Made by a program: the position numbers and the translations under genes. A stretch of DNA of 52,641 nt from Minisyncoccota bacterium (lineage in GTDB: Bacteria > Patescibacteriota > Minisyncoccia > Phycocordibacterales > UBA1550), in contig JAVHQE010000064.1 of NCBI GenBank assembly GCA_036170975.1, positions 1-52,641 on the forward strand. Direction: 5' to 3'. Positions within the stretch are counted from its first letter, which is position 1. Every line of letters starts with the position of its first letter. A model generated the notes under the pieces. That model was not told the DNA's origin. It saw only the letters and a list, made by a program, of their open reading frames with translations, and searched no databases. Below, piece after piece: positions 16,781 through 43,476 of the stretch.

Positions 16781-16840
16781 GTTAGAAGGAAAAGTCGAAT
16801 TTTATAAATAAGATAACGAGCGAAGTGACATTAGATTATT

Positions 16841-16953
16841 TACCCAGTTAAATGATTTCAAATTTATACAAATTTGAAATCGCGATTTGGAAAATCGCAT
16901 TTAACCGGGTGCAAGTTTTTCTAAGCTCACTGCGTTCACTAATAAAAACTAAC
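16841..16953 (+). promoter_or_regulatory. structured leader element, copy A (three-way junction 16847-16905 plus stem 16914-16920/16944-16950)
   Basis: Perfect helices read directly from the sequence. A near-identical paralog lies at 42161-42336. The element ends at the dnaK ATG. Confidence 0.6.
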
Positions 16954-18855
16954 ATGGCAAAAATTTTAGGTATTGATTTAGGAACAACAAATAGCGCTGT
17001 CGCTATTATTGAAGGAGGCGAACCACGTATTGTAGAAAATATTGAGGGTGCACGTACCACACCGTCTATTGTTGCGGTGTCAAAAAGTGGCGAGCGCTTA
17101 GTGGGCTTATTGGCAAAACGACAGGCAGTAACAAATCCTCAGAATACACTTTTTGGGATTAAGCGTATGATCGGGCACACCTTTGAGGACGAAGGGGTAC
17201 AGCGGGACAAAAAAGTTGCGCCCTTTAGTATTGAAAAGTCACCAACCGGTGGTGTGATGGTAAAAATGGGGGATCGTCAATATCGTCCTGAAGAGATTTC
17301 TGCGATGGTACTTCAGAAATTGAAGGCAGATGCAGAAGCAAAACTTGGTGAAAAGATAACAGAGGCGGTAATTACGGTTCCTGCATACTTTAATGATTCA
17401 CAACGTCAGGCAACGAAAGATGCAGGGCAGATTGCTGGATTTGACGTAAAACGTATCATCAACGAACCAACTGCGGCGGCGCTTGCGTACGGTTTTAATA
17501 AAAAGAAAGACGAGAAGATCGTGGTATATGATATGGGTGGCGGTACTTTTGACGTGTCTATACTTGAGGTTGGGGGAGATGTTATTGAAGTGAAGTCTAC
17601 GGATGGTGATGTACATATGGGTGGTGAAGATATCGATCAAAAGATTATTCGCCATATCGCAAGCGAATTCAAAAAGGAATCAGGGATTGATGTTTCAAAT
17701 GATATTATGGCGCTCCAGCGACTCAAGGAGGCTGCAGAAAAAGCAAAACACGAGCTTTCGACAACCCTAGAGTCGGAGATAAATATTCCGTTCATCACCT
17801 CAGGCGCTGATGGTCCGAAACACTTACTCTTGAAACTTTCCCGCGCAACGCTCGAGGATCTTGCTCGTGAGTATATTGATAAATCAATTGAAATTACAAA
17901 GCGTGCTATTGCCGCCTCGCCTTTTAAAAAGGAAGATATCAATGAAATCATTATGGTTGGAGGGCAGACACGCATGCCAGCAATTGTAAATGCCGTAAAA
18001 GAACTTTTTGGGAAAGAACCAAATCGTTCTATCAACCCTGATGAAGTAGTTGCCATTGGAGCTGCTATTCAGGCAGGTATTTTACAGGGAGATGTAAAAG
18101 ATGTCTTGCTTCTCGACGTCATTCCTCTTTCTTTAGGGATTGAAACATTTGGAAATGTAGCAACAAAACTTATTGAAAAGAACACGACGATTCCTGCTTC
18201 ACGCTCGCAGGTATTTTCTACCGCAGCAGATAATCAGACGTCAGTGGAGATACACGTAGTACAAGGTGAACGTCCTATGGCTCCGGACAATAAGTCCCTT
18301 GGACGATTTATTCTCGACGGTATTCCACCAGCACATCGCGGTGTTCCTCAAGTGGAGGTAAGCTTTGATGTTGATGCGAACGGTATTTTGCAAGTAAAAG
18401 CAAAAGAAAAAACAACAGGAAAAGAACAATCGATTCGTATCGAGGCAAGCTCGGGACTTTCTAAGGATGATATCGCACGTATGCAAAAAGAAGCAGAGAT
18501 GAATGCAGAAGAAGACGCAAAGAAACGTGATAGTGCAGAATCAAAAAATGTTCTTGAACAAATGATTTATACAGCAGAGAAAGCACTTCGTGATAATGGA
18601 GATAAAATTTCCCCTGAAATTAAGACTGCGGTAGAAGAAAAAATTGCAACAGCAAAGACGGCAAGTGCGGGTGCAGACATTGAGGCAATGAAAAAGTCTG
18701 CAACAGATCTTTCAGAAGAAGTTTCAAAAATAGGTGAAGCAATGATGAAAGACTCAGAAGCCACAAAGAATCAAAGTTCTGAACCTGCGGGAGAAAAAAA
18801 AGAAGGAGGTGAGGGTACTGTACACGACGCTGAGTATAAAGAAGAAGGAAAGTAA
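16954..18855 (+). CDS. dnaK: molecular chaperone DnaK (Hsp70)
   Basis: The canonical N-terminus [14 protein letters not shown] begins at 16954. Full set of Hsp70 motifs. The track extension back to 16852 is rejected. Confidence 0.95.
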
Positions 18856-41037: not shown

Positions 41038-42135
41038 ATGAAAAAAAATAACTCAATCGATAAAGTGTTTCTTGGTCTCGCGCTCGCCCTTGCACTCCTG
41101 GGTCTTTTTGTTTTTACGTCTGCCTCATTCGGACTTTTTGCGCGAAAAGGGTTCTCTTTGCAAGATCTCTTCTTCGATCAGGTTGCTCTCGGTTTGGTGT
41201 TGGGTCTCATTGCAATGATTGTCGCCATTCGTTTTCCTTTGGATCTTTTACGTAAATACTCGCTACATCTTTTTATTGTTTCAATTTTTTTAACCATTCT
41301 TGTTTTTGTTCCTCATATTGGGCTCGAAAAAATTAAAGGAGCGCACCGGTGGATAGACCTTCGCTTTACTTCATTCCAGCCATCTGAAGCGCTCAAGCTT
41401 GCTACGGTAATCTATTTTGCTTCACTTCTCCCTCTTTTTAAAAATCGTATTCATGAAATCAAATACGCTCTAGGAATCTTTTTTGGTATTGTTGCGGTAC
41501 CAGCACTGCTTCTCCTTAAAGAGCCTGATACGGGGACTCTGGCTGTTCTTTTTGCAGCTCTTTTAACAATGCTTATTGCAGGGGGAGCGAAATTGCGGCA
41601 TTTTTTTGTTGTCGTTATTATTGCGGTACTTTCGATATGGGTACTTGCGTTGGCAAAACCCTATATCATGGAGCGGGTACTTACTTTATTTGATTCATCA
41701 CGTGACCCTCAAGGGTCAAGCTATCAAATTCAAAAATCACTTCTTGCTATTGGGTCAGGTGGTATCACTGGGCGTGGATTTGGGCAGAGTATTCAAAAAT
41801 TTGGTTCACTCCCTGAACCAACAGGGGATTCGATTTTTGCTGTTGTCGGTGAAGAATTCGGGTTTGTGGGAGGAGCGTTGATTATTATACTTTTTTTCCT
41901 CTTTGGTCTTCGGGGGATTCAGATTGCACGCCGGGCACCTGATATGTGGAGTGGACTTTTAGCCACTGGAATTGTTATACTGATTATATCGCAGTCATTT
42001 GCGAATATTGCAGCAATGCTTGGGCTAATCCCGCTTACGGGAGTGCCTTTGGTTTTTGTGAGCCATGGAGGAACAGCTCTCCTTTTTGCTTTTCTCGAAA
42101 TCGGTATATTGCTCAATATCTCTAAGAGAAATTAA
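41038..42135 (+). CDS. ftsW: SEDS-family peptidoglycan glycosyltransferase FtsW/RodA
   Basis: Polytopic membrane protein with QPSE, LPEPTGDSIFAVVGEEFGF and GVPLVFVSHGG motifs. Located between mraY and murG. Confidence 0.85.
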   Translation: MKKNNSIDKVFLGLALALALLGLFVFTSASFGLFARKGFSLQDLFFDQVALGLVLGLIAMIVAIRFPLDLLRKYSLHLFIVSIFLTILVFVPHIGLEKIKGAHRWIDLRFTSFQPSEALKLATVIYFASLLPLFKNRIHEIKYALGIFFGIVAVPALLLLKEPDTGTLAVLFAALLTMLIAGGAKLRHFFVVVIIAVLSIWVLALAKPYIMERVLTLFDSSRDPQGSSYQIQKSLLAIGSGGITGRGFGQSIQKFGSLPEPTGDSIFAVVGEEFGFVGGALIIILFFLFGLRGIQIARRAPDMWSGLLATGIVILIISQSFANIAAMLGLIPLTGVPLVFVSHGGTALLFAFLEIGILLNISKRN

Positions 42136-42160
42136 GGAGTGTAGCAACTATAATTTCTCT

Positions 42161-42336
42161 TACCCCGTTAAATGATTTCAAATTCGTGTTTTGTTGTAGT
42201 TTTGTGTTAAAATCAACAAAAGGTTGTGAAATTGCTCACTAAAAACATACAGAAAATTTGGAATCGCGATTTGCAAAATCGCATTTAACTGGGTGTAAGT
42301 TTTCTGATTTCACTCCGTTCAATAATAAAAACTAAC
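42161..42336 (+). promoter_or_regulatory. structured leader element, copy B (paralog of 16841-16953, with a 70-nt apical loop in hairpin 1)
   Basis: The 5-prime block matches copy A at 25 of 26 nt and the 3-prime block is about 90% identical over about 88 nt. The helix-forming positions are preserved. Confidence 0.6.
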
Positions 42337-43476
42337 ATGAAAATTCTTTTTACCGGTGGAGGTAGTGGTGGACATTTTTACCCCATTATCGCCGTTGCAG
42401 AAAAATTAAATATTCTCCTTGAACGCGAAAAGATTGCAAGCGTTAATTTTTATTACATGTCGACTGAGCCTTACAATGAAGGACTTTTATCTGATAATAA
42501 AATTAAATTCATACCCGTCACTGCAGGTAAAGTTCGGGGCTATTTCTCGGTCCTTAATTTTGTTGATTTTTTCAAAATGGGGTGGGGTATGGTCAAAGCC
42601 TTTTTTCAACTTTTTGCCTTATATCCTGATGTAATTTTTAGTAAAGGTGGGTTTCCTAGTTTCCCTGTTCTTTTTGCTGCACGCTTTTTTCGTATTCCTG
42701 TAATTATCCATGAATCAGACAGTGCTCCAGGGCGTGTAAATGCGTGGGCAGGATCATTCGCACAAAAGATTGCGATATCGTATCCCGAAGCTGCACAATT
42801 TTTCCCTGCAGGGCGTACGGCACTTACGGGAAATCCCGTTCGTCAAGAAATCTTGCGCCCAACGGGAAAAGACGCATTCAAAGAGCTCGGTCTCGACCCT
42901 ACTATTCCTGTCCTCTTGATTCTCGGAGGATCTCTCGGTGCGCAAATAATAAACGCGCAATTTGAAACTCTTGCTCCGCGTCTTGTTGATAAGTATCAAA
43001 TTATCCATCAAACAGGAGAGGGTAATCTTGAGAGTGTGCGTACTACCGTTACAGGTCTTCTTGGCAACAGTCCCTACGCTTCACGGTATCATCTCTACGG
43101 GTACCTTAATACTGAAACGATGAAGCTTGCGGCCGAAGCTGCTACCGTTGTTGTTTCTCGCGCAGGGTCAGCAATTTTTGAGATTGCGGCGTGGGGTATT
43201 CCTGCGATTATCATCCCTATTACTGAATCAAATGCAAATCATCAACGAAAAAATGCTTATGCGTACGCACGCGCAGGTGCAGCGCTTGTAATAGAAGAGG
43301 CAAACCTTGGTCCAAATATTCTCCTCTCTGAAATTGATAATCTTATGTCAGACGAAAAAAGGAGAGGTATGATGAGAGAATCAGCAAAGGCATTTTCTCA
43401 TGTTGATGGTGCAGAAAAAATAGCAGAACAACTCGTCGCCGTTCTCTTGCGTCATCAAATCCCTTCTGCCCTATGA
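42337..43476 (+). CDS. murG: UDP-N-acetylglucosamine--N-acetylmuramyl-(pentapeptide) pyrophosphoryl-undecaprenol N-acetylglucosamine transferase
   Basis: GGGSGGHFYP N-terminus and GT28 C-terminal domain motifs (SRAGSAIFEIAAWGIPAIIIP). Confidence 0.9.
   Translation: MKILFTGGGSGGHFYPIIAVAEKLNILLEREKIASVNFYYMSTEPYNEGLLSDNKIKFIPVTAGKVRGYFSVLNFVDFFKMGWGMVKAFFQLFALYPDVIFSKGGFPSFPVLFAARFFRIPVIIHESDSAPGRVNAWAGSFAQKIAISYPEAAQFFPAGRTALTGNPVRQEILRPTGKDAFKELGLDPTIPVLLILGGSLGAQIINAQFETLAPRLVDKYQIIHQTGEGNLESVRTTVTGLLGNSPYASRYHLYGYLNTETMKLAAEAATVVVSRAGSAIFEIAAWGIPAIIIPITESNANHQRKNAYAYARAGAALVIEEANLGPNILLSEIDNLMSDEKRRGMMRESAKAFSHVDGAEKIAEQLVAVLLRHQIPSAL

Follow-up and report, generated by a model that had tools for sequence, protein, structure and literature searches.

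The spacer between ftsW and murG on contig JAVHQE010000064.1 (C64) of a groundwater Minisyncoccota bacterium (assembly GCA_036170975.1, henceforth G000; 864 kb, 43% GC, 167 contigs) was analysed together with the entire 52,641-nt stretch in which it lies, henceforth called the window. Two related palindromic elements are visible in the window, copy A before dnaK and copy B before murG, and the original prediction had described them as an RNA leader that carries about 66 extra nt in the apical loop of hairpin 1 in copy B. We consider it likely, short of certain, that copy B is the long form, lacking an open reading frame (ORF), of a family of palindromic cassettes encoding an 86-residue single-domain GIY-YIG nuclease, and that it is a recent insertion uncoupling murG from ftsW.

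Relation of the cassette to a nuclease gene

Cassettes without an ORF share the left arm, the outer helix, the arms of hairpin 1 and hairpin 2, and the 3′ module with cassettes that carry one. An intact ORF of 86 codons, with 261 nt between the outer arms, was found in G001, G043, and G007 (two copies in the latter). It matches the GIY-YIG domain (PF01541, E = 7.5e-16), and the nearest PDB chains of the nuclease are the stand-alone UPF0213 proteins 1zg2 and 1ywl. In these full-length copies, the ORF starts 3 nt past the hairpin-1 5′ arm, and the remaining arms are part of the coding sequence. The hairpin-1 3′ arm and the hairpin-2 5′ arm together provide the codons T-E-N-L-K-S-R-F-E, which lie within the conserved motif Y-T-E-N-L-K-S-R-F-E-Q-H, and the C-terminal L-K-S-Y-L-T-G comes from the 3′ arms of hairpin 2 and of the outer helix, with the TGA stop codon right after the outer helix. 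The hairpin-1 arms are 72 nt apart in ORF-bearing copies, and the insert between them in ORF-less copies resembles the corresponding ORF segment (z of 3.8–4.7, none of 200–300 shuffles as good), with the signal located in the 3′ half. The stretch described in the original prediction as 66 extra nt in the apical loop of an RNA leader is hence better read as an ancestral segment from the middle of a nuclease cassette, whose hairpin arms are codons in the full-length copies.

The 70 nt between the hairpin-1 arms of copy B would accordingly correspond to the degenerate first third of the nuclease gene, and hairpin 2 to the leftover of an in-frame deletion that removed its last two thirds; copy A would have undergone a further deletion, of the hairpin-1 loop. 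As coding sequence for a catalytic motif cannot arise from a hairpin arm, the direction of change is from ORF-bearing to long, then short, then mini forms. Spread of the cassettes may depend on a predicted in-trans action of the nuclease at their hairpin ends. Two pseudogenised ORF-bearing copies at different loci of G020 have a TGA and a 1-nt deletion in common, so that dead copies must still spread or convert one another. Fragments of the ORF are also present in G000, at contig ends.

Architecture of copy B

All features of the window described here lie on the forward strand. The genes flanking the spacer, taken from the ORF list, are ftsW (41038–42135) and murG (42337–43476), and the gap of 201 nt between the ftsW stop at 42135 and the murG start at 42337 was as originally described. 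Comparison of this filled site with the empty site of the sister genome G041 and the family alignment delimit copy B to 42126–42336, i.e., nothing but cassette lies between the ftsW stop region and the murG ATG. The left outer arm A (42136–42159, delimited with RNAfold) contains TATAAT at 42149–42154, and its GGAGTG pairs with CACTCC at 42311–42316 in the RNAfold structure. The outer helix had been placed at 42167–42173/42283–42289; it is present and can be extended, with one mismatch, to a 5′ arm at 42162–42173 (ACCCCGTTAAAT) and a 3′ arm at 42283–42294, the latter encoding the nuclease C-terminus Y-L-T-G in full-length copies. Within the outer helix, the hairpin-1 5′ arm (42174–42184) is separated by the 70-nt insert (42185–42254) from the hairpin-1 3′ arm (42255–42265; nuclease codons N-L-K-S in full-length copies), and all 11 pairs of hairpin 1 form if one U·G wobble is allowed. 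The internal stem noted previously in the insert is found at 42190–42196/42214–42220, and the conserved box G-TGTTAAAAT, which combines a relic start codon (GTG here) with an extended −10-like motif, lies at 42204–42213. Hairpin 2 (42266–42282), read as the collapsed remnant of a stem that, in full-length copies, encloses the final two thirds of the ORF, and the start-proximal stem S/S′ (42298–42333; S at 42298–42303, AGTTTT, pairing with S′ at 42328–42333, AAAACT) are both retained, and the right outer arm A′ sits within the loop of the start-proximal stem. Copy A (16830–16957) is a short form of the same cassette before dnaK, in which the loop of hairpin 1 (16854–16881) is cut to 4 nt, in agreement with the 70 nt vs. 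4 nt reported originally. Folding of 42136–42345 with RNAfold reproduced this architecture (−45.3 kcal/mol, z = −3.08, none of 200 shuffles as good).

The mismatch in the extended outer helix (42162–42173/42283–42294 in copy B; 16842–16853/16899–16910 in copy A) changes jointly on both sides, being A·C in ACCCAG/CCGGGT copies and C·U in ACCCCG/CTGGGT copies, and may represent a subfamily signature or a recognised bulge.

Mobility and effect on the ftsW–murG junction

Orthologues of murG are present in all 28 congeneric genomes compared, which allowed the state of the junction to be determined in each of them. The ftsW TGA overlaps the murG ATG (ATGA) in 11 genomes, a gap of 1–8 nt is found in nine, and a gap of 43 nt in two, whereas a long-form cassette of 201–288 nt occupies the junction in five and a different GIY-YIG cassette in one. 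A leader conserved upstream of murG is thus not what the homologs show, since ftsW and murG are adjacent without the element in 22 of the 28 congeners. On a tree of FtsW and MurG, the filled state requires at least four changes, at least three of which are forced by well-supported branches, and there are sister pairs in which one genome is filled and the other empty. The sister genome G041 (92% protein identity to G000) was covered almost in full. No long copy is present at any site in it, and this subfamily of nucleases is missing; nine long-form sites of G000 were comparable, of which eight are empty in G041 and one holds only a 3′ tail. The absence of the cassette from 22 of the 28 congeners and from the sister genome therefore identifies copy B as a recent, mobile insertion.

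At the nucleotide level, G000 and G041 align through 42125 and diverge from 42126. The last two codons and the TAA stop of ftsW in G000 (42127–42135) come from the cassette, whereas ftsW of G041 runs to a TGA overlapping the murG ATG. As the cassette replaces the native overlapping stop and start and gives ftsW a new stop, translational coupling is removed; the original suggestion that murG is uncoupled from ftsW is thereby borne out, given that the replaced junction is an overlap or a gap of 1–8 nt in 20 of the 28 genomes. The A-rich ends of the cassette resemble each other. A co-conversion tract at ftsW was considered and discarded, because the G000 flanks match G041 right up to 42125, which leaves no room for a long imported tract.

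In four groundwater metagenome runs, the insert was present at single-copy depth and the arms at 5–12 times that depth. No contig with an empty murG site was recovered from these runs, only the filled state, and joints in the groundwater contigs that looked like population variants were attributable to paralogous copies such as copy A.

The spacer of G010 (locus L017) holds a different GIY-YIG ORF of 89 codons within an ACCCG...TTTTTACTAAT inverted repeat whose end abuts the murG ATG, so that two cassette families use the ftsW–murG site. In the dnaK spacer of G041 (C8, ~43264–43392), only a short cassette relic (AATCGCATTTAA...) is left, and cassettes are therefore also lost by deletion.

Size and composition of the cassette family

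The family was surveyed by BLAST and with an nhmmer profile built on the 3′ module in G000 and in loci from four relatives. This yielded about 21 cassette sites in G000, extending the family well beyond the two copies visible in the window, and 71 matches to the 3′ module across the five genomes. Nearly all 3′ modules are oriented with their 3′ end against the ATG of a housekeeping gene, as in copy B, whose last nucleotide (42336) is flush against the murG ATG (42337); the genes concerned encode ribosomal proteins, elongation factor G (EF-G), TypA, NusA, NusG, RpoC, SecE, Obg, DnaK, and MurG. By the state of hairpin 1, the G000 copies comprise ten long, four short, and one mini form plus at least two broken at contig ends, i.e., the long form outnumbers the short one. 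The hairpin-1 loop was not found to be variable in length as had been supposed: it measures 66–72 nt in all 32 long copies analysed. The halves of the cassette form an imperfect palindrome, i.e., terminal inverted repeats, with a mean A/A′ duplex energy of −15 kcal/mol. The nearest relative of copy B is a paralogue before rplX in G000 rather than the murG copies of other genomes. The family illustrates how mobile DNA can reside inside essential, translationally coupled operons (ftsW–murG and rpsL–rpsG–fusA) of a streamlined genome without being lethal to the host, to which it brings its own stop codon, a leader, and possibly a promoter.

In the left outer arm, the murG cassettes of G016 (L024) and G001 (L026) contain extra insertions of ~45–85 nt, suggestive of nesting.

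Conserved box and relic reading frame

Statistics on the box, the reading frame, and the loops were taken over related cassette copies, so that the counts given below are not independent of each other. The box (A/G)TGnTAAAAT occurs in 24 of the 32 long copies, compared to 3.5 expected. It starts 19–24 nt past the hairpin-1 5′ arm, and the distance from its end to the 3′ arm is exactly 41 nt in 17 of the 24 copies. Its first three nucleotides are ATG in 22 of these 24 copies and GTG in copy B. Among five murG copies with otherwise diverged inserts, the box is the main conserved block.

In 21 of the 24 box-bearing copies, the frame that begins at the box runs without a stop codon across both hairpin arms as far as L-T-G, while the other two frames close after 0–7 codons in most copies. 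When only the copies of equal length were considered, 15 of 17 were open; the expectation was 5.6, and none of 1000 shuffles exceeded 12. Length changes also preserve the frame. The distance from box to arm is 35, 38, 41, or 44 nt and thus in frame in 23 of 24 copies, and the hairpin-1 3′ arm plus hairpin 2 amount to 13, 28, 37, or 40 nt, with differences that are multiples of three. In one subfamily, the relic frame ends at a TAA located 1 nt before the host ATG. Selection would therefore, to judge from these patterns, keep the relic frame open in most long copies, and it seems to act on openness rather than on protein sequence. A ribosome translating the relic frame would open the start-proximal stem and could then reinitiate at the host gene. 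That 21 of 24 copies have kept the frame open suggests that host gene expression makes use of a fragment of a dead selfish gene.

In copy B itself, the relic frame (42204–42335, 44 codons) starts with GTG, has one internal TAA at 42240–42242, and is then open to a TAA at 42333–42335, 1 nt before the murG ATG; it is probably dead. Expression of murG at copy B would most likely depend on read-through from ftsW and on a structured leader without a Shine-Dalgarno sequence, perhaps with the box as a promoter. In general, no Shine-Dalgarno-like sequence precedes the ATG of cassette-led genes in G000, where an A-rich tail such as AAAAACTAAC is found instead; such a sequence is also missing at the native ftsW–murG junctions of the relatives.

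With respect to promoter function, the box is a near-perfect extended −10 element, and to judge by its sequence TGnTAAAAT it may double as an extended −10 promoter. Of 35 tRNA genes, 12 have the motif TGnTAnnnT in the 70 nt before them, compared to 7.4% of random 70-mers, which makes a promoter of the extended −10 type plausible in this organism. A scan of the window for tRNA and tmRNA genes returned none. The hairpin-1 5′ arm was examined as a −35 partner of the box and rejected, as the spacing of 22–27 nt is wrong.

Single-strand structure and covariation

The start-proximal stem S/S′ covaries (−6.94 kcal/mol for cognate vs. −4.27 kcal/mol for non-cognate pairs of strands, none of 2000 permutations as low), and hairpin 2 and the hairpin 1 of short forms show several double compensatory changes. 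The palindromes are therefore single-strand hairpins rather than a dimeric operator, as the original prediction had argued. No copy-specific covariation was detected in the outer helix and the long outer stem A/A′, which are complementary in the consensus only, as terminal inverted repeats would be. Additionally, a search of the window against Rfam at gathering thresholds returned no match. Of the proposed RNA-level function, the single-strand hairpins with compensatory changes stand, whereas a role as a regulatory RNA leader is not supported. Covariation cannot discriminate RNA from single-stranded DNA (ssDNA). In this case, a conserved, well-folding, and covarying “leader” represents the backbone of a selfish nuclease cassette, and covariation alone is no proof of a regulatory RNA.

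Two further structural candidates were dismissed, namely a hammerhead-like three-way junction, which has no unpaired core nucleotides and no Rfam match, and pairing of the box region with the S strand, as the box is constant while S and S′ vary.

Comparison with known mobile elements

The Seg proteins of T-even phages are free-standing GIY-YIG homing endonucleases of about 200 residues or more with a DNA-binding domain. The cassettes resemble seg genes in that a GIY-YIG gene lies between conserved genes and is polymorphic for presence and absence at the same site in close relatives; seg genes, however, are not known to have palindromic flanks or a family of ORF-less derivatives. Miniature inverted-repeat transposable elements (MITEs) and palindromic repeats such as Correia/CREE, ERIC, and RUP are intergenic, occur also inside operons, and can bring promoters or alter mRNA structure. 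The short, non-autonomous cassette derivatives with their long inverted ends are similar to these, but have no recognised transposase or clear target-site duplication, replace the whole stop-to-start spacer, and retain an open relic frame. The MIRU repeats of mycobacteria are tandem direct repeats in the intergenic regions of operons, in which short ORFs abut the neighbouring genes and suggest translational coupling; unlike the cassettes, they are not known to be palindromic or derived from a nuclease gene.

Putative mobile promoters were described as highly similar upstream regions before unrelated genes within a genome and its close relatives (PMC3575422). That grouping is based on similarity only, whereas for the cassettes the origin and structure are identified and promoter activity would be the predicted part. 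The closest published system are the Ssn nucleases with their NTS/SRM hairpin repeats (Chenal et al., Nat Commun 2025, PMC11893778), whose authors point out the layout of repeat, gene, and repeat resembling that of an insertion sequence (PMC11893778). In both cases, a small single-domain GIY-YIG gene lies between its own hairpin-forming repeats and many ORF-less repeats occur near important genes. The cassettes differ in the position of their hairpin arms, which lie partly inside the coding sequence, and in the strict orientation of the copies, which terminate at a start codon. The published degenerate SRM motif, searched as a regular expression, has no match in the four ORF-bearing cassettes or copy B and two in the whole of G000. 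In the literature on GIY-YIG nucleases with Patescibacteria or MITEs, no description of GIY-YIG cassettes flush against start codons was found. If confirmed, the cassettes would constitute a new set of small hairpin-associated GIY-YIG nucleases and provide a testable model for the spread of promoters and leaders in uncultured bacteria of the candidate phyla radiation (CPR).

Alternative explanations

Several results weigh against the reading of copy B as a nuclease-derived cassette with a selected frame and a promoter-like box. The insert is not significantly similar to the ORF in its 5′ half (z of 0.7–1.8), and no target-site duplication is definable, the filled/empty pairs showing replacement of the whole spacer. 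Codon-position entropy reveals no third-position excess among the relic frames. In a subfamily of seven copies, the ratio of nonsynonymous to synonymous polymorphism (pN/pS) is 0.40 in frame, yet one shifted frame reaches 0.57; selection may act on openness only, or openness may be partly inherited. Besides the mutual dependence of the counts, no −35 partner of the box was found, and a consensus promoter scan, which needs a −35, does not call the box. It is possible, although rather doubtful, that the insert is a neutrally decaying pseudogene fragment and that box and open frames are a recent inheritance from intact nuclease genes, where selection at the protein level acted on the codons Y-V-L-(R/K)-S. 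This is in line with the alignment of the box to the V-L-R-S codons of the intact ORF, the stop and the GTG start of copy B, the recency of the long copies in G000 relative to G041, and the lack of a third-position excess, but not with the inserts being strongly diverged outside the box while 15 of 17 frames are open against 5.6 expected, with indels in threes in both loops, or with the box being the main conserved block in the five murG copies. Moreover, all long forms share the N-terminal degeneration and the deletion in the hairpin-2 loop and therefore descend from ORF-less ancestors. An unlikely alternative is that the cassettes are target sites of a GIY-YIG nuclease acting on ssDNA hairpins in the manner of Ssn and NTS, modulating recombination or transformation near essential genes, with the insert irrelevant to murG expression. 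The single-domain 86-residue nuclease flanked by its own hairpin repeats and the dozens of ORF-less copies (cf. PMC11893778) would fit, as would hairpin covariation, which suits ssDNA as well as RNA, and junctions without unpaired bases; the near absence of the SRM motif (none in the cassette, two matches in the genome), the nearest solved relatives being UPF0213 proteins not shown to be Ssn, and the strict orientation and flush fit to start codons, which are not features of NTS repeats, argue against it.

The explanation of the original prediction, a cis-regulatory RNA leader common to dnaK and murG whose hairpin 1 tolerates a variable loop and whose insert is neutral, appears very unlikely by now. 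The read-through RNA does fold as described (z = −3.08), hairpin 1 of copy B keeps its pairing through a U·G wobble, and the start-proximal stem, hairpin 2, and the hairpin 1 of short forms carry compensatory changes. The constant loop length of 66–72 nt (all 32 long copies), together with the fixed box and the preserved frame, nevertheless contradicts a neutral and variable loop, and a leader is at odds with arms that are codons in full-length copies, with an element that precedes about 20 unrelated genes, is missing before murG in most congeners (22 of 28), and differs in presence between sister genomes, and with the lack of an Rfam match and of copy-specific covariation in the outer helix and the long stem. 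The prediction itself had counted it as contrary evidence if the insert were a repeated mobile sequence, or if related genomes lacked the element while ftsW and murG stayed neighbours; the segment does belong to a repeated, mobile family, the 22 element-free congeners answer to the second point, and the leader reading is largely refuted already on its own terms. A protein operator, i.e., a dimeric repressor bound to the 12-bp palindrome of hairpin 1, is the least credible explanation and extremely improbable: hairpin 1 of copy A is a perfect palindrome, but in most copies 70 nt lie between the half-sites, the double compensatory changes preserve pairing instead of sequence, and the genes that follow the element, about 20 in number, are functionally unrelated.

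Starting from the nuclease-cassette reading, an “expression adaptor” transposon can be put forward as a tentative and rather speculative model. The GIY-YIG cassette would swap stop-to-start spacers and supply the upstream gene with a stop codon and the downstream gene with a promoter-like box, a structured leader without a Shine-Dalgarno sequence, and an upstream frame ending 1 nt before its ATG. Once the nuclease had been lost, the host would keep this truncated frame open because its translation drives initiation at the essential gene, and the nuclease would recognise the perfectly stacked three-way ssDNA hairpin junction of the cassette.

Additional cassettes and nuclease genes

Two other small GIY-YIG ORFs were observed in G000. 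One (C133:8018–8251) lies within an inverted repeat of CCCCGTGAGATA / TATCTCACGGGG and directly upstream of the apparent 5′ end of the RNase P RNA. The second (C110:8965–9198, minus strand) is located between direct copies of a 36-nt GC-rich repeat beginning with CATCGTCTTTGCGAGC; it represents a different pair of nuclease and repeat, at which the published SRM regular expression has no match. Other cassette classes with the same flanks and different inner hairpins are present in G000 at C13, C19, C48, C81, C93:4791, and C133:897. A class consisting of a GC hairpin and an AT hairpin precedes gap-, obg-, atpD-, and recA-like genes in G000, and the copies before fusA and typA carry the long loop in the second hairpin, not in the first.

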